From Myxococcota bacterium (GTDB taxonomy: Bacteria; Myxococcota_A; UBA9160; UBA4427): a stretch of 64,000 nucleotides of DNA. The notes beneath the pieces are model-generated. The model was not told the DNA's origin and did not search any database. It was given only the letters and a program-made list of their open reading frames with translations. The translations under genes were made by a program, and so were the position numbers. Positions within the stretch are counted from its first letter, which is position 1. Each line of letters opens with the position of its first letter. Shown here in pieces: positions 3,125 to 17,777 of the stretch. The DNA lies in contig OZ252299.1 in the NCBI GenBank assembly GCA_965250285.1, positions 3,232,001 to 3,296,000 on the forward strand, in the 5' to 3' direction.

Positions 3125-5563
3125 ATGGGGCCGCTCTCGACCGACAACGCTTGGGGCGCTCCGGGCCGACTCGCAACAGCGGCGCTGTGCGCGGGCTCGC
3201 TCGCGATCACGCTCGTCACCTCGGGCGCGGCGGCCGCAAACGAGGCGACCCGAGCGCCCGAGATCTTCTCGAAGCGAGCGTGGGACGACCCGCCGCGCGA
3301 CGCCCGGCCGGTGGCGCGCTGGTGGTGGCCGGGCGGCAGCGTCGACCGCGACGCGATCGACGCACAGCTCGAAGCGATCGCGGCGGCCGGCTTCGGCGGT
3401 GTCGAGCTTCAGCCCCTGCTGCTCGGCATCGGCGAAGACGATCTCGCGGCTGACCCGCGCCTGCGAAGCGTCGGCACGCCGGGCTATCGCGCGCTCGTCG
3501 CGTACGCCGCCCAGGCGGCGGGCCAGCATGGCCTGGCCTTCGACCTGACCCTCGGCAGCGGCTGGCCCGGTGGGCTGCCCACGGCCCGCGCCAACGCCGA
3601 GCGCCAGCTGCTGATGACGCATGTCGATGTCGAAGGCCCCGACCTGGTCGACGTCGCCGTACCCGCCGCCCCCGATCAGAGCTATCGGCGCAGCGTCGAG
3701 TGGGTGCTCGACGTGCTCGGCCCGATGGATGAAGAGGCCGAACTCGTGGCTGTCGTGGCCGCGCGCGTCGGCCCGAACCGCGAGGGCGTGCCGACCCTCT
3801 CACACGCGCGAGCGCTCGAAGGCGCGGTCGCAAACGGACGCCTGCGCTGGACACCCCCGTCCGGAACGTGGCGCGTCTTCATCTTCTTCAGCAACTCGAC
3901 CGAACACTTCGTGATGGGCGGCGCCTTCCCCGGCGCCGAGGCCGACGCGCGCGTCGTCGACCACCTCGCCGCACGGGGGGCCGACGCGCTGCTCGAAGGC
4001 TACGCCGATCCGCTGCTCGCCGAGGTCGGCGCTCGACACGTGCGAGACGTCTTCGTCGACAGCTTCGAGCTGATGGGCGAGCTGCCCTTCACCGCGGCGT
4101 TCTTCGATGCGTTCGAGTCGCGCGCCGGCTACGACGTGACGCCCGACCTGCCGCTGCTCTTCCGGCGCGGCGGCGAGTCGAAGTACGCCGAGATGATGGA
4201 TCTCTTCGGCCGGCTCGGCGGCCCGGTCTACGTCGACGCCGATTCGGGCCGGGCCGAACGCGTGCGCGAAGACTACGAGCGCGTCCGAAGCGGCCTCTTC
4301 GAGGAGGCCTTCGTCGCCCGCTTTGCAGGATGGTCGCATGCACGAGGGCTGGGCCTTCGCCTGCAGGCCCACGGCGGCTACGGCGACATTCTCGACACGT
4401 ACGCACTGGCCGACGTGCCCGAGAGCGAGGGGCTCTTCGCGGGCGGCGCGTTCGACTTCTTGAAGCTCGCGTCGTCGGCCGCCCACGTCGCCGGGCGCCG
4501 GTGGGCCTCATCGGAGTCGTTCATCACGTTGCGGCTGTTCGGAAGATCGATCGCGAACGAAGAGATGCAGCTGCTCGCGGGCCGGGCGTTCGCAGCGGGC
4601 ATCAACCGCATCGTCTACCACGGCGTCGCGCAGCCCTACGTGCGCGCGGACGGCGCACGCTGGTTTCCGTTCTCGGGCGGCTTCGGACGCATCCTCGCGG
4701 GCCCTCTGCCGATGTCACTCGACGTCGACGCCGCGCGGCTCGCCGCGATTGTGCCCTTCAATCGAGCGCTGGCGCGGTCGGCGGTCGCGATGAGCAGCGG
4801 CGACCCGGCGAGCGACGTCGCGTGGCTGCATCCCGACGCGACCTACCCCGACGCGGCGAGTCTGCAGCTCGGCCGCATCGAAGCCCATGCCGGCGAGTCG
4901 ACCCCGACTGCGGCACTCCGTGCGCGCGGTCTGACCCACGATCGCGTGAGTCGGCGCATGCTCACAGGCGCCCAGCCCGACGGCGACGGCTTCAGAGTCG
5001 GGGCGATGCGCTATCGCGCGCTCCTGGTCGACCCGCTCGACGTCGCCGAGCCCGAGCTCGTCGAAGCGATGGCTCGGATCGCCGAGCACGGCGTGCCCGT
5101 GTTCACGCTCGGGCAGCTGCCCGCGCGCGCCCCGGGGCTGCACGACGCCGACGGGCGCGACGCGCGCGTGCGCTCGGCGCGCAAGCGCCTCGAGGCCCAC
5201 GCGCAGCGCGTGGCCCCCGAGGCGCTCGAAGCGGCGCTCGCGCGCCGCGTTCGCGGCGATCTCGTTGCGCCAGCAGGGAACGAGCAGCTCACGGTCTCTC
5301 TCGCTCGGCGCACCCACCCGCACGGCGACACGCTGCTCGTCTTCAACGAGTCGTGGTCGCCCACTTCGGCACAGCTGCGCTTCGTTCGCAGCGGCCACGA
5401 TCTCACCCGCTGGAACCCCGAAACCGGTGCCCCCACACAGTTGCGTGCCCGGGTCGAATCGGGCGACGTCGTTTCCGTCCCACTCGAGCCGGCCGCGTGG
5501 ACGATCCTCACCCTCGGTCGCACGACCAACCCGGCCGGTCGGGGCCGCGACGACAGCCCGTAG
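3125..5563 (+). CDS. Secreted glycoside hydrolase, GH106 (alpha-L-rhamnosidase-like)
   Basis: Signal-like N-terminus, RPVARWWWPGG, GFGGVE, DLTLGSGWP, FVDSFE, DVPESE, KLASSAAHVAG and GINRIVYHG. Start uncertain (3101 or 3125). Confidence 0.8.
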   Translation: MGPLSTDNAWGAPGRLATAALCAGSLAITLVTSGAAAANEATRAPEIFSKRAWDDPPRDARPVARWWWPGGSVDRDAIDAQLEAIAAAGFGGVELQPLLLGIGEDDLAADPRLRSVGTPGYRALVAYAAQAAGQHGLAFDLTLGSGWPGGLPTARANAERQLLMTHVDVEGPDLVDVAVPAAPDQSYRRSVEWVLDVLGPMDEEAELVAVVAARVGPNREGVPTLSHARALEGAVANGRLRWTPPSGTWRVFIFFSNSTEHFVMGGAFPGAEADARVVDHLAARGADALLEGYADPLLAEVGARHVRDVFVDSFELMGELPFTAAFFDAFESRAGYDVTPDLPLLFRRGGESKYAEMMDLFGRLGGPVYVDADSGRAERVREDYERVRSGLFEEAFVARFAGWSHARGLGLRLQAHGGYGDILDTYALADVPESEGLFAGGAFDFLKLASSAAHVAGRRWASSESFITLRLFGRSIANEEMQLLAGRAFAAGINRIVYHGVAQPYVRADGARWFPFSGGFGRILAGPLPMSLDVDAARLAAIVPFNRALARSAVAMSSGDPASDVAWLHPDATYPDAASLQLGRIEAHAGESTPTAALRARGLTHDRVSRRMLTGAQPDGDGFRVGAMRYRALLVDPLDVAEPELVEAMARIAEHGVPVFTLGQLPARAPGLHDADGRDARVRSARKRLEAHAQRVAPEALEAALARRVRGDLVAPAGNEQLTVSLARRTHPHGDTLLVFNESWSPTSAQLRFVRSGHDLTRWNPETGAPTQLRARVESGDVVSVPLEPAAWTILTLGRTTNPAGRGRDDSP

Positions 5564-10020: not shown

Positions 10021-10512
10021 ATGAAGCCCTGCGCGTTGATCCTGTCGATCCTGCTCACGATCGCGAGCAACCCGGCCTGGGCCGATGACGAGATCGTCTC
10101 GGGCCCCGACCGGCGCCACGAACTGGACCTTCGGATCAAAGAGATCGAAACCGAGCGAGATCAGATCTCGGTCGCGGCACCGGCGGTCTACACCTTCATT
10201 GGGCTCGGCATCGCCGCGGTCGGGGCTTTGGTTCTCGGAGGCGGGATCGCCCGCAACAACGATCCCGACGGCTCGCCTTCAGGCACCGCTGCCATTGGCG
10301 GCGGCGCGGCGCTCATCGCCATTGGCGGTGTGACCAGCTTCATCAGCGGCACCGTATGGAGTCGCCGCTCCGACAAGCGCAATGCGCTCGATGCCGAGCG
10401 CGAGTCGCTCATCAAAGAGCGCGGGACGCTCAGCGAAACGCTCTCCCGCGTCGAGATCCGAAGCCCACACCGTGACGGCACCCAGTTCGTGACGCTCGGC
10501 GTTCGCTTCTGA
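10021..10512 (+). CDS. Tandem paralog 1: secreted protein with Gly-rich hydrophobic hairpin and C-terminal beta-signal-like FVTLGVRF
   Basis: Signal peptide MKPCALILS...PAWA, GGAGA RBS, clear homology to the next four ORFs. Confidence 0.85.
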   Translation: MKPCALILSILLTIASNPAWADDEIVSGPDRRHELDLRIKEIETERDQISVAAPAVYTFIGLGIAAVGALVLGGGIARNNDPDGSPSGTAAIGGGAALIAIGGVTSFISGTVWSRRSDKRNALDAERESLIKERGTLSETLSRVEIRSPHRDGTQFVTLGVRF

Positions 10513-10666
10513 GACAGCGCGCTCTTGGGGCTGCACGATGCGAGGGCCGCACCCGCCCCATCAGCTCACCAGAGACACGCCTTCGCGGCATTCATTCTTG
10601 ATCGGCATGCGACGATCGACATCGAATCGACCCTCGAACGCCGATTCGGTCTGGGAGGAAAGCTCG

Positions 10667-11149
10667 ATGAAGCCCTGCGCGTTGATCCTGTCGATCGTCG
10701 TGACTCTGACCGGCAGCCCTGCTTGGGCCAACGACGAAGTGCTCCTACCGACCGACGTTCGCAGGTACATCGACCTCCGCGTAGAGGAGCTCGATGCCGA
10801 GCGCGATCAGATCTCGACGACAGGACCGCAGCTGGCCACGATCTTCGGCGTTCTGGGGGTCGTGGGCGGCACGGTGGCGCTGCTCGCTGCGCCACAGGCC
10901 ACGAACGACGAGAACGCTCCAGTCGGCGCCATCACAGCGGGCTTGATGCTCATGACGGCGGGCGGCGCCTCGACGGTCGTCGGCGCGATCTTGTGGGGAA
11001 AGCGTGCGAAACGGCGCCGAACGATCGACGCCGAGCGCGAGCTGCTGATCAAGGAGCGCAACGCCATCACCGAGTCGCTCTCGCGGATCGAGCTGAGCGC
11101 CCCGTTCCGCGACGGCACCCATTTCGTCACGCTCGGCGTTCGATTCTGA
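10667..11149 (+). CDS. Tandem paralog 2
   Basis: MKPCALILS start after GGAGG; ends RDGTHFVTLGVRF. Confidence 0.85.
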   Translation: MKPCALILSIVVTLTGSPAWANDEVLLPTDVRRYIDLRVEELDAERDQISTTGPQLATIFGVLGVVGGTVALLAAPQATNDENAPVGAITAGLMLMTAGGASTVVGAILWGKRAKRRRTIDAERELLIKERNAITESLSRIELSAPFRDGTHFVTLGVRF

Positions 11150-11304
11150 GACCGAATGGCGTCTGACTTTCGAACATCGAAGCGGTCCATCCGCGCCACG
11201 CCTTCAAGGGCGATGAGGTTTCGGATCACACATCCACATTCGGCCGCAACGAACGACATCGAAACCGCCCTCGGGCATCGACTTCGTTCAGGGAGAGAAC
11301 CTCG

Positions 11305-11799
11305 ATGAAGACCTGCGCGTTGATGTTGTCGCTCATTTTTTCCCTCGCCAGCTGCCCGGCATGGGCGAACGACGAAGCGCTGGCGCCGACGGACGTTCGC
11401 AGGCACATCGACCTGCGCCTCAAGCTGCTCGATTACAAGCGCGAGCAGATCTCGACGACGGCGCCAAAGGTGGCGACGTTCGCGGGCATCGGAGGGTTGC
11501 TGGGCGGTGCGATCGCGATCGTCGTCGCAACGCAGGGGTGCCGAAGCGCCGACCGCTCTTGCGGAGACCGCTGGGGTGCATCCATTGCAGGGATCACCTT
11601 GCTCTCGGTCGGCGGCGTCACGACGCTCATCAGCGGCATCGTGTGGGGCACGCGGGTCAAGCAACGCAACAAGATCGATGCCGAGCGAGAGCTGCTGATC
11701 AAGGAGCGCAACGCCATCACCGAGTCGCTCTCGCGCATCGAGCTGAACACCCCTTTCCGCGACGGCACCCAGTTCGTGACGCTCGGCGTCCGGTTCTGA
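11305..11799 (+). CDS. Tandem paralog 3
   Basis: MKTCALMLS start; Cys-pair loop; ends RDGTQFVTLGVRF. Confidence 0.85.
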   Translation: MKTCALMLSLIFSLASCPAWANDEALAPTDVRRHIDLRLKLLDYKREQISTTAPKVATFAGIGGLLGGAIAIVVATQGCRSADRSCGDRWGASIAGITLLSVGGVTTLISGIVWGTRVKQRNKIDAERELLIKERNAITESLSRIELNTPFRDGTQFVTLGVRF

Positions 11800-11952
11800 G
11801 ACCGCCTCGCGCCTGATCGACGCGCGTCGAAGCGGGCCATCGACCCAATGACCTCACCCACGAAACGGCTTCAAGTCACGCATCCATCTTCGGCCCTACA
11901 GAATGACATCGAGCCCGGCTCGGGCACCGACTTCATTCAGGAGGCAACACCG

Positions 11953-12447
11953 ATGAAGACCTGCGCCCTCATTCTCTCGATCGTGATGACCCTCGCAAGC
12001 GCCCCAGCTTGGGCGCTCGACGACGTCGCAACCCGACCCGACCGCCGCCATGAGATCGACCTGCGCATCGAGGCCCTCGAGGCCGAGCGCGAGGAGATCT
12101 CGACCAAAGGCCCCAAGGTGGCCACGATCTTCGGGATCACATCCCTCCTGAGTGGCGTGGGTGCGTTGGCTTCGCTCGCCCGACCGTGTCGCGAGGCATT
12201 CGATGAATGCGCACCCCGCGTGGGCGCAGGCGTCACCGGGATCACATTGTTCGGCGTCGGCGGCATCTCGACCATCGTCGGCGGCCTCCTCTGGAACAAG
12301 CGCGCGAAACGTCGCCGCGCCATCGAGGCGGAGCGTGAAGCGCTGATGCACGAGCGCGAGGCGCTCGCCGAGGCGCTGTCGCGCATCGAGCTGAGCACCC
12401 CGTTCCGCGACGGTGCCCGGTTCGTGACGCTCGGCTTCACCTTCTGA
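11953..12447 (+). CDS. Tandem paralog 4
   Basis: MKTCALILS start after AGGAGG; Cys-pair loop; ends RDGARFVTLGFTF. Confidence 0.85.
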   Translation: MKTCALILSIVMTLASAPAWALDDVATRPDRRHEIDLRIEALEAEREEISTKGPKVATIFGITSLLSGVGALASLARPCREAFDECAPRVGAGVTGITLFGVGGISTIVGGLLWNKRAKRRRAIEAEREALMHEREALAEALSRIELSTPFRDGARFVTLGFTF

Positions 12448-12510
12448 AACGCGTCGATCGATCAGCCGAAACCCGAATCACCGAACGGAACTGTCTTGGA
12501 GAATCGAATC

Positions 12511-13023
12511 GTGAAGTCGTGCGCCCTGCTCTTGTCGCTCCTCCTGACCTTCATCAGCGGCCCCGCCTGGGCGGAGGAATCGCTGGTCACCGGGCCCGAT
12601 CGTCGCCAAGAGATCGATCTGCGCCTCGAGTCGCTCGACGCCGAACGCGCGAAGATCTCGACGCGCGGGCCTGCGATCGGAACGGCCGTCGGGCTGGGCA
12701 CGGTCGCCCTGGGCGGGGTCTTGCTCGGCGTCGGGGTCGCTCAGTGCGACGGGCGAGCGAGCGAATACGGACCGTGTACCGGCCCAGGCTCGGGGATCGG
12801 CGCACAGGTCGGCGGCGTCGTCATGATGATCGCGGGCGGCTCGATCACGCTCATCAGCGGCATCGTCTTGGGCCGTCGCGCCAGCCGCCGCGACAAGATC
12901 GACGCCGAGATCGAGTCGCTCATCGACGAACGAAAGGGCCTCAAGGCCACGCTCTCACGGCTCGAGCTGAAGAGCCCCCACCGCAACGGCACTCAGTTCG
13001 TGACGCTCGGGTTCGACTTCTAG
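12511..13023 (+). CDS. Tandem paralog 5
   Basis: GTG start (MKSCALLLS) after GGAGA; Cys-pair loop; ends RNGTQFVTLGFDF. Confidence 0.85.
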   Translation: MKSCALLLSLLLTFISGPAWAEESLVTGPDRRQEIDLRLESLDAERAKISTRGPAIGTAVGLGTVALGGVLLGVGVAQCDGRASEYGPCTGPGSGIGAQVGGVVMMIAGGSITLISGIVLGRRASRRDKIDAEIESLIDERKGLKATLSRLELKSPHRNGTQFVTLGFDF

Positions 13024-13083
13024 GCGGCGTCGGGTGACTCACCCGCGCACGTACCAGATCGAACCAACATGGAGACGGGCATC

Positions 13084-13146
13084 GTGAAGCTCCTTGCGTT
13101 GATCTCATCGCTCCTCCTGACCTTCATCAGCGGCGGCGCCTGGTGA
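13084..13146 (+). pseudogene. Truncated tandem paralog 6 (signal peptide only, MKLLALISSLLLTFISGGAW*)
   Basis: 27 bp (13108-13134) identical to paralog 5 (12535-12561); homology ends abruptly at TGG-TGA. Confidence 0.8.
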
Positions 13147-13637
13147 ATGACGGAGACCCCACCCCGATCATCGTGATACTGAAGGTCATGTCCGGAGTTC
13201 GTATCGACGCTTCGGACCCGATGCATGAACGGCTCCAAGCCGTCGTCCAGTTTCCGGGCGTCGACCTCGACGATCTCGACGACTCGGAGCCGCCCTTCTT
13301 CACGTATCTCCCAGAAGTCGTTGCTCACACGTCCGACGAGGACTTCTGTGCGGCGCGCGACGAGCTGCGAGAGCTTCTGAGGCTCGCCGATCCGGTGGCC
13401 GAGAAGATCGGCGATCGGCTGCATCCGCTCGCTGCCAGGGTCGCCCTCAGCTACCGCGAGGACTTCGACCCGTTCATGTGCAAGCTGCTCGTGATCACCT
13501 GGGCGGGGTTCAGGCAGGTCGAGCATGGACGCGAGCAATACACTCGCGCGCGCGACTGGCTCGTGACGACGAATGCGCTCACGGAGCGACCGCAGCTATC
13601 GACCGAGGAGAGAAGCGATGCCCGTCATTCTCGATGA
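13143..13637 (+). CDS. Hypothetical protein, possibly a 5'-truncated fragment of an element gene
   Basis: Open frame begins right at the junction with truncated paralog 6, with no clear RBS; overlaps the cas1 start. Confidence 0.5.
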   Translation: MNDGDPTPIIVILKVMSGVRIDASDPMHERLQAVVQFPGVDLDDLDDSEPPFFTYLPEVVAHTSDEDFCAARDELRELLRLADPVAEKIGDRLHPLAARVALSYREDFDPFMCKLLVITWAGFRQVEHGREQYTRARDWLVTTNALTERPQLSTEERSDARHSR

Positions 13638-14844
13638 ATCACCCGTCAAGTCCGGCACACTGATGCTCCGCGGCTACGGAATCCGCATCGCGGTCGAGCG
13701 TGGATATCTCGTTGCGGAGGACGGCGTCGGCCGCGATCGACGCCGGATCCGCATTCCCCGGCCATCTCGCAACCTCGACCGCGTGATTGTCATCGGGCAC
13801 ACCGGCGAGATCACGTTCGACGCTCTGCGCTGGCTCTCGGACATCGGTGTGGGGTTCTCTCAGATCGACAACGACGGGAACGTGATCGCGGCAGTTGGCC
13901 CTCTGGGCCTTCGCGACCCCAGGCTGCGGCGTGCTCAGGCGATGGCAGCCGATACGGGTCGTGGCCTGGAGATTGCGCGGGATTTGATCCTCACAAAGCT
14001 GGAGTCACAGGCATCTGTTGTGTCTCGTCTCTGCCGAGCGCCCGCAAATGATGTAGGTGAAGCCTTCGAGAAGGCGCGGGGCGCGGAGTCGATCAAAGCC
14101 TTGCGTTCGCATGAGGCGACCGGAGCGCTGTCCTACTGGTCGGCCTGGTCGGATCTGCCGATGCGGTTTATCGGCAAGGATGAGAAGCGCGTACCCGAGC
14201 ACTGGAAGGCCTTCGTGCAGCGCACTTCGTACGTGACGAAGAGTCCGCGCAAAGCGATGAATCCGATCAATGCGATTCTGAACTACCTCTACGCGATCCT
14301 CGAAACAGAGGCCCGGATCGCCTGCCTGGGAGTAGGCCTCGACCCCGGCATCGGGCTCATGCACGCGGACCTGCAGTCGCGGGACTCACTGGCCGCAGAT
14401 CTCATGGAGCCGATCCGTCCTGAGGTCGATGCATGGGTGCTCGACCTCGTCCAGAGCAACATCTTCCGGAAGGCTGACTTCTTCGAGACTCGCGACGGGG
14501 TCTGCCGTCTCATGCCACCGCTCACCGAACAGCTCATGAAGACCGAGAATCATTGGCGGAGGCTGATCGCGCCAATCGCGGAGTACGTCGCGAAGCGGCT
14601 ACTAGTCGATCCCACCGCGGGGAGTCGCCGCACCGACAAGATCAAGCTCAAGACACCTCTCACGCAGGAGAATCGGAGCCGAGCGCGGGATGGGGTTCGC
14701 CGGCGACGAAGGCCCTCCAGCAAGCGACCGAGGCATCTGCTCGATCGCATCTGCGCCGACTGCGGGGCCAGCGTGGGACCGAGTACCGAACGCTGTCCGT
14801 CCTGCAGGCCTCCGTGTCGATCCAGCCAGACGGTGCGCGGCTAG
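13618..14844 (+). CDS. cas1: Solo Cas1 endonuclease/integrase, casposase-like, with C-terminal CxxC-x10-CxxC Zn ribbon
   Basis: GAGGAG RBS. N-terminal beta domain (GYGIRIAVERGYLV, ITFDALRWL). Catalytic motifs HEATGALSYW (E), NAILNYLY, GLDPGIGLMH (H) and DLMEPIRP. C-terminal CADC...CPSC. Confidence 0.9.
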   Translation: MPVILDESPVKSGTLMLRGYGIRIAVERGYLVAEDGVGRDRRRIRIPRPSRNLDRVIVIGHTGEITFDALRWLSDIGVGFSQIDNDGNVIAAVGPLGLRDPRLRRAQAMAADTGRGLEIARDLILTKLESQASVVSRLCRAPANDVGEAFEKARGAESIKALRSHEATGALSYWSAWSDLPMRFIGKDEKRVPEHWKAFVQRTSYVTKSPRKAMNPINAILNYLYAILETEARIACLGVGLDPGIGLMHADLQSRDSLAADLMEPIRPEVDAWVLDLVQSNIFRKADFFETRDGVCRLMPPLTEQLMKTENHWRRLIAPIAEYVAKRLLVDPTAGSRRTDKIKLKTPLTQENRSRARDGVRRRRRPSSKRPRHLLDRICADCGASVGPSTERCPSCRPPCRSSQTVRG

Positions 14845-14870
14845 ACAAGGGGGCCGAAAACCCCGCATTC
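14842..14870 (+). repeat. TIR-like motif copy C (TAGACAAGGGGGCCGAAAA...), beginning at the cas1 stop codon
   Basis: 17/19 match to the reverse complement of 15987-16005. Confidence 0.65.
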
Positions 14871-14975
14871 ACACCGAACCCAATACCGGGACGAGTCGAG
14901 GGCGAGGCGCCACATCAGCGCTAGGCCGAACGATCGCCGCACCAGAGCCAAGACGAGAGAGCGGGGCTGTGGATC

Positions 14976-15022
14976 CCCGCAAGACCGAAAGCGGCTTTGT
15001 TGGACCCCCTACCTACTATTCC
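14976..15022 (-). repeat. TIR-like motif copy A
   Basis: About 36/48 identity by hand alignment to 15965-16012 (direct); inverted relative to copy C. Confidence 0.6.
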
Positions 15023-15153
15023 AGCTGACGGCGGAAACGATCAGCGACTGCCTCGCGCTCAGCGCTAGGATCCCGCGGCATTCACTTGCTCGACCGATAC
15101 AACTGGCGATTCACCAGGTACTCGAGCAGCCAGATTTCCACAGGAGTCGATCC

Positions 15154-15684
15154 ATGATTCGCTTCGTTGCGGCCACGGTTTCCCTGATCACCTCACTCTC
15201 GATGGTCGCCCCCGTGCGGGCCGAGAGCGCAAAGAAGGTCGACGACCCGACCGGCTGGTCAGTGGGCGGGGGCATCGGCGCCGCCGCCAGCCCCGGACAG
15301 TTCGTGCTCCAGCTGGATGCGCCGTACCGCTTCTCCGAGTTGTTCTCAGCGGCTCCGACCTTCCAGCTGCTGGCGGGCAGCAGCTTCACGCGAATCTCGA
15401 TGTCACTCGACGGAGTGGTGCACCTGAACCTCTTCGACGAGAGCGACAACGTCGTCCTCGCGAATCTGACGCCTCACGTCGGCCTCGGTGCAGGCTTCAC
15501 TCACTTCAGTGCGTTCGGCTTCAACGAAACGAATTTCCTCCTCCCTATCATCATGGGGCTCGAGTTCGATCTCACGGAGGAGATCGCGCTGACGAACGAG
15601 ATGCGGTTCAACATCGTAGTCACCAGCGATTTCGACACCTTCTACTGGTCATGGCAGCTGATCGGGGTCCGGTACCGGTTTTGA
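15154..15684 (+). CDS. Small outer-membrane beta-barrel protein (8-stranded OmpA/OmpW-like fold)
   Basis: AGGAG RBS, signal peptide ending VRA, alternating beta strands, PHVGLGAGF and C-terminal GVRYRF. Confidence 0.8.
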   Translation: MIRFVAATVSLITSLSMVAPVRAESAKKVDDPTGWSVGGGIGAAASPGQFVLQLDAPYRFSELFSAAPTFQLLAGSSFTRISMSLDGVVHLNLFDESDNVVLANLTPHVGLGAGFTHFSAFGFNETNFLLPIIMGLEFDLTEEIALTNEMRFNIVVTSDFDTFYWSWQLIGVRYRF

Positions 15685-15964
15685 GTCGAGAGCCCGAATC
15701 TCGCGCCGGTTACACAGCACGATCCCTCAGAGTACAGCCGGAGATCTAGTCCTCGAATGCGTGAATGGGGTTACTCACGTCTGCGTGAGCCAGCCTGGCT
15801 GCTCGGTCGACTTCTTCTCAGGCCACGGCCTCTCGAATACGTATGGCTACTACATTGGCCGTATCGCTACATCCTGATCTGAGCCGCGATTGAGGAGCGA
15901 TCCGCCTGCCTCTCTACCTGCTGACCTAACTAGAATCAAGATTCGAACGGATTGAGTTCAGTTT

Positions 15965-16012
15965 CCCGCAGGAGCCAAGGCGGCCCTTTTCGACCCCCTT
16001 ATCTACTAACCC
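15965..16012 (-). repeat. TIR-like motif copy B, probable right end of the element
   Basis: Reverse complement begins GGGTTAGTAGATAAGGGGGTCGAAAA; related to copies A and C. Confidence 0.65.
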
Positions 16013-16021
16013 TCAGGCGAG

Positions 16022-16056
16022 TTGACCGGAACCGACTTTCGTCTTATTTTCGCCTC
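16022..16056 (+). promoter_or_regulatory. Sigma70-like promoter TTGACC-N17-TATTTT (leaderless) overlapped by a TTCG-N7-TTCG direct repeat
   Basis: -35 at 16022-16027, -10 at 16045-16050, ATG at 16057; TTCG at 16038 and 16049. Confidence 0.6.
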
Positions 16057-17244
16057 ATGTCGACGATCCCGAAGCCCACCCTGCCTCTCTCGCAGACGCC
16101 CGCCCCACGCGTGGCCCAGACCGCTCCGGCGGGCGCCCTGCGCGGCCGTGGGGCGCTCGACAACCCCACGAATCGCTTCGAGCGGTACCACTACGACCGC
16201 GATGAAGAGGCGCTCGCGGCGATCCGCCTGGCGGATCACGTCGACGACGCGCCCGAGGCGGCGGGGCTCGACGGCGAAGACGAAGCGGCGCTGCGCCCCC
16301 ACCCCGACACCCTCTTTCTGCGCGACCCGACGCGCAAGATCCTCAGCCGCAACGCGAGCCCCGACGTGCCGTTCGACGTCAGCATCAATCCGTATCGCGG
16401 CTGCGAGCACGGTTGCATCTACTGCTACGCCCGGCCTGGCCACGAGTTTCTCGGCTTTTCGGCCGGGCTCGACTTCGAGACCCGCATCCTCGTGAAAGAG
16501 GACGCACCCGAGCTGCTGCGCGACGAGCTGCTGAAGCCGAAGTATCGGCCGAAGCTGATCGGGCTCTCGGGCGTGACCGACCCGTACCAGCCGATCGAGC
16601 GAAAGACTCGGCTCACCCGGCGCTGCCTCGAGGTGCTCGCCGAGTTTCGCAACCCAGTCGGGCTCATCACGAAGAACGCGCTGGTGCGACGCGACGTCGA
16701 CGTGCTGCGCGAGCTGACCGATCACGGGGCGCTGGCGGTCAGCCTGTCGATCACGACGCTCGACGACGAGCTGCACCGGGTGCTCGAGCCCCGCACGTCG
16801 TCGCCCCGCATGCGACTCGAAGCGGTTCGGGTGCTGGCCGACGCGGGGATCCCCGTCGGCGTGAACGTGGCCCCGGTGATCCCGGGGCTCAACTGTCACG
16901 AGATCCCGTCGATCCTCGAGGCGGCCGCGGCGGCCGGGGCTCGCACGGCGGGGCACATCGTGCTGCGGCTGCCCCATGGCGTGAAAGAGCTCTTCGAGGC
17001 CTGGCTGCGCGAGCACCGCCCCGAGCGCGCCGACAAGGTGCTCAACCGGCTGCGCTCGATGCGCGGCGGCGCGCTCGACGATTCACGCTTCGGGACGCGC
17101 ATGAAGGGCGAAGGCATCTTCGCGCAACAGATCCACGATCTGTTCGATGTGTCTTTGCGGCGCGCGGGCCTCGCGCGCGAACGCACGACGCCGACGACCG
17201 AACACTTTCGCCGCCCGCCCGCGCCGCAGCTCGAGCTCTTCTGA
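16057..17244 (+). CDS. PA0069/Rv2578c-family radical SAM protein (spore photoproduct lyase-like, DNA repair)
   Basis: GRGALDNPTNRFE, SINPYRGCEHGCIYCYAR (CxxxCxxC), SGVTDPYQPIE and C-terminal QLELF (beta-clamp-like motif). Confidence 0.9.
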   Translation: MSTIPKPTLPLSQTPAPRVAQTAPAGALRGRGALDNPTNRFERYHYDRDEEALAAIRLADHVDDAPEAAGLDGEDEAALRPHPDTLFLRDPTRKILSRNASPDVPFDVSINPYRGCEHGCIYCYARPGHEFLGFSAGLDFETRILVKEDAPELLRDELLKPKYRPKLIGLSGVTDPYQPIERKTRLTRRCLEVLAEFRNPVGLITKNALVRRDVDVLRELTDHGALAVSLSITTLDDELHRVLEPRTSSPRMRLEAVRVLADAGIPVGVNVAPVIPGLNCHEIPSILEAAAAAGARTAGHIVLRLPHGVKELFEAWLREHRPERADKVLNRLRSMRGGALDDSRFGTRMKGEGIFAQQIHDLFDVSLRRAGLARERTTPTTEHFRRPPAPQLELF

Positions 17245-17282
17245 GCCGGGTCGTTGGCGGCGCCCGCGCGGGCAGCGCGGCT

Positions 17283-17777
17283 ATGCTCTCGCCACCTCGT
17301 TCGCGTACGCCACGAAGCAGCGTGCGCCTGCACCCGGGAGCGCACGTCATCGCCTTTCTGCCGCCGACCTGGCCTCGCGTCGTCGTGCTGCTGCTCGTCT
17401 CGGTGCTGTTCACCGTGACGGGCATCATGCACTTCACCAACACCGCGTTCTTCTCGGCGATCGTGCCACCGTACCTTCCAGCGCCCGACATGCTCGTCTA
17501 TGTGAGCGGCGTGTTCGAGATTCTCGGCGGCATCGGCGTGCTTGTGCCGGCCACCCGGCGCTTCTCGGGCTACGGCCTGCTCGCGCTGCTCGTCGCCGTG
17601 TATCCGGCGAACATCCACATGGCACTGAACCCCGAGCTTTTCCCCGACGCGTCGGCGGGCGCACTCTACGCCCGCCTGCCCTTCCAGTTCGTCTTCGCGG
17701 CGCTCGTCTGGTACGGCGCCTGCTCGCCCAAGAGCGCCGCGCGCGGCGAAGTCGCCGAAGCGCCGAGCGCCGCCTGA
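17283..17777 (+). CDS. DoxX-like membrane protein
   Basis: GIMHF, IVPPYLP, SGVFEILGG, VYPANIHMA and RLPFQ; start uncertain. Confidence 0.8.
   Translation: MLSPPRSRTPRSSVRLHPGAHVIAFLPPTWPRVVVLLLVSVLFTVTGIMHFTNTAFFSAIVPPYLPAPDMLVYVSGVFEILGGIGVLVPATRRFSGYGLLALLVAVYPANIHMALNPELFPDASAGALYARLPFQFVFAALVWYGACSPKSAARGEVAEAPSAA

Follow-up and report, generated by a model that had tools for sequence, protein, structure and literature searches.

Organization of the locus

The window, a stretch of 64,000 nt from the genome of a Myxococcota bacterium (assembly GCA_965250285.1, contig OZ252299.1, positions 3,232,001 to 3,296,000 of the forward strand), harbors a solo cas1 gene situated between a family of tandem paralogues and three related repeats, here termed copies C, A, and B. 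Copy B adjoins a promoter predicted for a radical SAM gene. Positions refer to the window:

10021..13023, + strand: five tandem paralogous genes for predicted secreted or membrane proteins of ~165 aa (10021-10512, 10667-11149, 11305-11799, 11954-12447, and 12513-13023), either cargo or host genes
13041..13144, + strand: remainder of a sixth paralogue, consisting of its upstream region and signal peptide and breaking off at 13144
13143..13637, + strand: open reading frame of 164 aa, no relatives of which were found in casposon loci
13618..14844, + strand: family-3-type casposase, a solo Cas1 of 408 aa with a Cys4 zinc ribbon
14842..14869, + strand: copy C, a truncated left-facing casposon end comprising repeat nt 8-36 without the terminal 7 nt
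14975..15022, - strand: copy A, a degenerate full-length end of 48 nt (matrix rank 11)
15023..15031, + strand: putative relic of a target duplication, the final 7 nt of the 14-mer (6/7) followed by GG
15154..15684, + strand: intact gene for a predicted small outer-membrane beta-barrel (PF13505, E 0.0013, below the cut-off)
15964..16012, - strand: copy B, an intact casposon end of ~49 nt starting with GGGTTAGTAGATAAG on the minus strand (matrix rank 1)
16013..16026, + strand: 14-bp target sequence ending in TTGAC, the surviving copy of the duplication
16022..16050, + strand: predicted sigma-70 promoter of the radical SAM gene (TTGACC, 17 nt, TATTTT)
16057..17244, + strand: host radical SAM gene of the PA0069 family (NF033668, 460.9 bits, cut-off 360)

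From the paralogues to the radical SAM gene the GC content is 56-65%, as compared with ~70% on either side. One public run yielded a contig that spans 11706-17500 and agrees with the window throughout; this run may be the assembly's own source. Among the five paralogues (10021-13144), which are 43-59% identical, both termini are conserved while the hydrophobic central part varies, and GC3 declines from ~0.85 to 0.51 along the array. None of them reached the cut-off of a Pfam family, and an atlas search returned unnamed clusters only; one homologue adjoins a casposon end in the congener G001. The break of the sixth paralogue at 13144 would represent a deletion or rearrangement junction. No match to the 164-aa open reading frame was obtained in atlas searches.

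At the other border of the locus, the radical SAM start codon lies 7 nt past the -10 box, so that the mRNA is predicted to be nearly leaderless. A direct repeat (TTTCG, 6 nt, TTTCG; 16037-16052) overlaps this -10 box and is similar in many family members (L002-L005, L007-L009, L011, and L013-L015). It may be a repressor site, possibly an SOS-type box; a genome scan for the repeat gave five loose matches and no clear regulon. Periodic 22-mer repeats are found near the start of the genome contig (G000:C1, ~3860-3900).

A truncated casposase

The Cas1 protein encoded in the window matches PF01867 (E 1e-42) and is the product of the sole cas1-like gene found in the genome. Its residues E166, H249, D261, and E264 are invariant in the homologue alignment. 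With 408 aa, however, it falls short of the homologue median of 521 aa (104 of the 119 matches listed measure at least 480 aa): the Cys4 motif is kept, whereas the ~110-aa C-terminal part of the homologues is absent. The cas1 stop codon is formed by the first three bases of copy C. The missing tail was sought in all six frames, frameshifts included, and not found (best E 0.12), and an extension of the Cas1 profile to 14949 was not supported. Identity of the protein to its relatives is only ~50%, and a tree of close homologues gave it no sister clade with good support (0.37), so that it is at most a candidate for the enzyme acting on the ends described below. Its placement in family 3 is based on architecture and end sequence. 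In two loci of close Cas1 homologues (L119:2639-3445 and L120:10515-11324), 132-bp tandem repeats occur which are probably coding.

A tblastn search with the PolB of the casposon in the related genome G018 yielded nothing in the genome analyzed here (G000), and a PF03175 search of the genome, run without a positive control, was empty. Since no PolB was found, the locus is classified as a remnant and not as a complete casposon; the target duplication, too, is present on one side only. What the window contains is a decayed remnant that derives from family 3 casposons and resembles them in its workings.

Three copies of a casposon end

Copies C and B had been reported in a preliminary description to agree at 17 of 19 positions (14842-14860 against the reverse complement of 15987-16005), and A (14976-15022) and B (15965-16012) to form imperfect direct repeats. 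Both likenesses were reproduced, the latter with matches in 36 of 48 aligned columns. Neither the A/B nor the C/B alignment was matched by any of 1000 shuffles or 1000 random genome segments, while the C/A alignment was reached by four of each. The likeness between C and B extends to ~14869 and thus comprises end nt 8-36, the terminal 7 nt being absent from C. Over 29 nt, C agrees slightly better with B (23/29) than with A (20/29), and A is about equally close to the end found in G001 and to B (scores 42 and 45). Inward of A, likeness to G001 or B is not significant, and the DNA inward of A and that inward of B are not alike. The 19-mer shared by C and B occurs, at up to three mismatches, at just these two sites in the 6.25-Mb genome, which contains no other copy of the motif at this threshold.

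Reference ends were obtained from related elements. While a locus search with a single Cas1 protein as query gave no matches, an alignment of 34 Cas1 homologues led to 79 genome loci (from the best 80 of 431 matching stretches). A PolB match was present within the locus DNA covered in 61 of the 79, and a pair of inverted ends starting with GGG in 28; the other 51 loci, which are incomplete or without a visible end pair, were excluded from matrix training. The end matrix was hence trained solely on the ends of 28 foreign Cas1 and PolB elements, which are not independent of each other: they are mostly acidobacterial, several have a common target gene, and L139 repeats L034. Among 12,497,780 positions in the genome analyzed here, this matrix ranks B first, A 11th, and C 22,219th, the low rank of C arising from the loss of its first 7 nt. 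In addition, B aligns with an end in G018 over ~50 nt. The motif is thus present at the ends of related Cas1 elements, and the earlier reading of the TIR-like motifs as casposon terminal inverted repeats holds, with C as a partial copy. The core common to C and B is confined to a single locus, so that dispersed REP-like copies do not exist. The repeats are therefore casposon ends and not host repeats.

A degenerate end pattern gave no matches in metagenome contigs, and a looser one, applied to 68 family genomes, returned mostly chance matches, with control counts as high or higher; besides the window locus, only the match in G018 proved to be an end. An IS630-like element, its TA duplication flanking the 19-nt core, was considered and set aside, since B continues beyond this core until it reaches a GGG terminus next to its 14-bp target. 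A CRISPR array was likewise rejected, given three copies of which one is inverted, spaced ~130 and 990 bp apart.

Insertion at predicted promoter -35 boxes

Characterized casposases insert at one conserved gene (tRNA, aEF-2). In the 28 related elements, the target duplications measure 14 bp and end in TTGAC or TTGTC in 24 cases as first parsed, or in 26 after a 1-nt register correction of L059 and L060. The two exceptions are L081 and L091; the former sits 11 nt from a tRNA-Glu gene, and the latter has GTCAA ~5 nt out of register. A TAnnnT element follows at a spacing of 17-18 nt in 20 of the 24 targets; for control TTGAC sites, the figures are 44 of 1039 within these loci and 77 of 3914 in the genome analyzed here. 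The genes downstream differ among elements and, judged by eye, presumably include rnpA, valS, and nuoB. The rule was also seen in a held-out set of 80 loci from metagenomes (the top-ranking ones among at least 555, not all of them independent), where the motif stands in register at 26 of 35 end-like sites, compared with 1.1% of random positions. A -10 box accompanies nine of the 17 promoter-side sites in this set, and five of the remaining eight face another end.

Copy B fits the rule exactly, with 14 nt ending in TTGAC, a 17-nt spacer, and TATTTT; judged from its sequence, the TTGAC of this target is predicted to be the -35 box of the sigma-70 promoter of the radical SAM gene. Agreement with the rule is poorer at the G018 site (TTGCT, CATACT). 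Taken as a group, these casposons have insertions mostly exactly on predicted -35 promoter boxes, and the window locus constitutes a clear case in another host family. The literature searched, which included few subscription papers, yielded no description of promoter targeting and none of mini-casposons that occur naturally. The word 'promoter' is absent from the main text of one survey, the supplements of which may annotate family 3 targets (PMC4779613), and from the parts covered of two other papers (PMC9939771 and PMC10359463); its single use in PMC5137440 refers to a plasmid marker.

The congener G001 carries a homologous end at the same promoter, together with a 14-mer that also ends in TTGAC and differs from that of the window in its first eight bases. 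As the 14-mers differ while the ends are ~78% alike, the two species would have acquired separate or renewed insertions. A cas1 relative was not found in G001, an assembly that is 83% complete. In 13 other, more distant relatives, the radical SAM gene is present, mostly with a similar promoter, and no end lies near it. At ~1-300 on the reverse strand of L017 (G001:C33), a gene which we take to be succinate dehydrogenase iron-sulfur-like seems to break off before a G-rich stretch; the latter faintly resembles a casposon left end, with a low score.

Stacked elements and mini-casposons in relatives

A parallel to the arrangement in the window is provided by G018, where an 8.5-kb segment with B-type ends is positioned 14 bp from the end of a full casposon with cas1 and PolB, and where a cas1 fragment stops exactly at the far end of this segment. 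The stack (L225, G018:C8, 74-8971, and L016, G018:C48, 2508-11400) comprises, in order, the full casposon with a nucleotidyltransferase-like gene, the B-type element, and the cas1 cut at the end; the B-type element holds a polB fragment and an IS-like transposase pair. The stack lies upstream of what are presumably scpA and scpB. Among complete elements, which had been chosen for intact ends so that the count is biased, a further end-like sequence was detected on the promoter-distal side in 10 of 27 (11 with L060) and on the proximal side in one, a polarity that fits the arrival of new units beside the promoter.

Natural single-cargo mini-casposons exist in this group. In L076 (18445-19984), a cargo-only segment of 1540 bp with an NAD synthase gene is enclosed by duplicated targets, and in L048 (537-3417) the same holds true for a segment of 2881 bp, which contains genes for a BlaI repressor and an M56 peptidase/DUF3738 (BlaR1-like) protein. 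The mini-element idea put forward in the preliminary description, according to which C and A would delimit an element of ~180 bp and C and B one of ~1.2 kb, is thus borne out in relatives, although not at the locus for which it was proposed. There, C lacks its terminal bases and is flanked by no duplication, and the Cas1 is truncated, which speaks against either pair as a usable substrate. In an archaeal casposase, the five terminal nucleotides were, according to the part of the study covered, the portion required for integration (PMC6614799). By this analogy, mini-elements based on C are unlikely substrates now, and neither C with A nor C with B is likely to form a live mini-element. The ends are now likely immobile; no joint at C, A, or B was encountered in contigs, from which rare forms are dropped, of four runs of one study.

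The beta-barrel gene has a host-like GC3 of 0.85, and homologues are present in 27 of 67 family genomes. At 24 other barrel loci examined, no end-like site scored above 11.8 bits, compared with 26 for B, and the barrel family is therefore not typical cargo. In the window, the gene, which lies between A and B, is likely to be cargo.

Origin of the locus

The claim that no convincing target-site duplication could be found has to be amended: one copy does exist (16013-16026), and it is the second that is missing. A search of the window and of 100 kb on each side of it, with up to two mismatches allowed, gave no second copy of the 14-mer, and neither a left end nor a left duplication was seen around 13144, in the gaps separating the five paralogues, or around 9670. 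Lacking a left copy, no complete element can be drawn. A further trace of the target may follow copy A, where 7 nt (6/7) plus GG resemble the end of the 14-mer; this pattern is encountered at 77 of 400,000 random positions, in a test that was defined after the match had been seen. The relic suggests that A once had the same duplication and hence is an older end at the same site. Past these first 9 nt, the DNA after A shows no left-end match (rank 151,254) and no promoter match that is significant against the genome background.

C, A, and B are worn ends of family-3-type casposons set against the predicted -35 box, and it seems probable to us that they are what erosion has left of two or three insertions made one after another at the same site. 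The casposase would recognize the promoter side of the target and make staggered cuts 14 bp apart, such that TTGAC closes the duplicated 14-mer and an unbroken promoter remains on one side. Each later element would then land between the promoter and the previous element. Following this scheme, B would stem from the most recent insertion, the barrel gene lying in a segment of ~1 kb that has lost its other end to decay. A, after which half of its duplication remains, would stem from an earlier insertion at the same site, and C would be a left-end remnant joined to the cas1 of a neighboring element by a deletion similar to that implied in G018. Successive insertions, with A and B as their right ends, had been mentioned previously as an alternative; with the relic that follows A, and with the parallel of the G018 stack, this reading now fits best.

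Other histories have to be weighed against successive insertion. C and B might once have bounded a single non-autonomous element of 1.18 kb, with the barrel gene and the older end A inside, which landed against or within cas1. The better agreement of C with B than with A, in the 17/19 core as well as over 29 nt, weakly favors this pairing, and cargo-only mini-elements of 1.5 and 2.9 kb are known from the relatives. However, no copy of the 14-mer lies to the left of C, C is without its terminal 7 nt, an internal partial copy of an element's own end is found in none of the 28 complete elements, and the duplication-like 9 nt after A would be left unexplained; we thus regard such an element as improbable. 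Less probable still is a single insertion in which A and its flank are a segmental duplicate of the B junction, generated by the recombination that expanded the five-gene array, with C derived from the original left end by inversion or deletion. The region has been duplicated repeatedly, and the 18 nt after A resemble target plus promoter to a degree reached by 42 of 1000 shuffles; yet 209 of 1000 genomic segments reach the same resemblance, the DNA inward of A is unlike that inward of B, and the near-equal closeness of A to the G001 end and to B fits separate related elements.

A motif with no relation to casposons, be it a regulatory or REP-like repeat of the host or a CRISPR repeat in decay, would be in line with the conserved position of B in G001 and with the adjacency of a Cas1 gene. 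A repeat of this kind is hard to reconcile with a motif that is confined to one locus of the genome, is absent near the radical SAM gene in the 13 other relatives, is arranged in mixed orientation at irregular spacing, has no family match in Rfam, and corresponds to casposon ends together with their target register. Largely refuted by the matrix ranks and the G018 alignment, it is the least credible of these explanations and very unlikely.

Beyond the successive insertions at this one site, a broader proposal can be made more tentatively: a widespread bacterial casposon group may use active sigma-70 promoters as a 'leader' and build ordered arrays of full elements and single-gene mini-casposons. 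The window would then hold a decaying array in which the barrel, and perhaps the five-gene family, had been delivered as cassettes, and B might still serve as an end, should a full casposase become available.

Relation to known casposons and to CRISPR adaptation

Bacterial family 3 casposons, among them AceAut-C1, encode a Cas1 with zinc-binding and HTH tails, and their target is listed as intergenic in the part of the original survey covered (PMC4046053, Krupovic et al. 2014). There, the AceAut-C1 end begins with GGGATAGTAG, and its 15-nt direct repeat begins with CGTCAA, which corresponds to TTGAC on the other strand. The covered part of a later study describes all family 3 casposons as intergenic (PMC4779613, Krupovic et al. 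2016). The elements described here resemble AceAut-C1 and its family in the solo Cas1 with a C-terminal zinc-binding domain (with an HTH in homologues), in ends that start with GGG, and in the presence of PolB in relatives. In the window, by contrast, the cas1 has lost its C-terminal part, a PolB was not found, and a single end has stayed intact. Moreover, where the covered parts of these papers refer to 'intergenic' targets and name no promoter, the target here is a predicted promoter -35 box.

Solo-TIRs and tandem casposon arrays occur in Methanosarcina (PMC4779613), for which tandem insertion in vivo has also been described (PMC10359463), in each case in the part of the paper covered. As in these arrays, one target is reused, a 14-bp duplication is shared between elements, and decayed copies and lone ends are present; in contrast, the elements in Methanosarcina belong to the archaeal families 2 and 4 and have tRNA or CGCA-motif targets. 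A resemblance also exists to the leader-repeat integration carried out by Cas1-Cas2 in CRISPR systems, since the polar, site-directed insertion we infer would duplicate a short target beside a fixed recognition region. Unlike in CRISPR systems, the units measure kilobases and have inverted ends, a host promoter takes the place of the fixed region, and neither an array nor another cas gene is present at the locus. If a Cas1 integrase indeed selects many promoters by their -35/-10 pattern and stacks its elements in order, it would constitute a close natural parallel to leader-directed spacer acquisition, and the promoter would record the history of the captured genes. An integrase choosing promoters in this way would spare the host gene. 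The locus in the window is itself probably a fossil, the value of which lies in extending the rule to another host family, with two species at one promoter, and in pointing to natural cargo-only mini-casposons. Whereas the mini-casposons in the covered part of PMC10359463 were engineered, those in L076 and L048 are natural.
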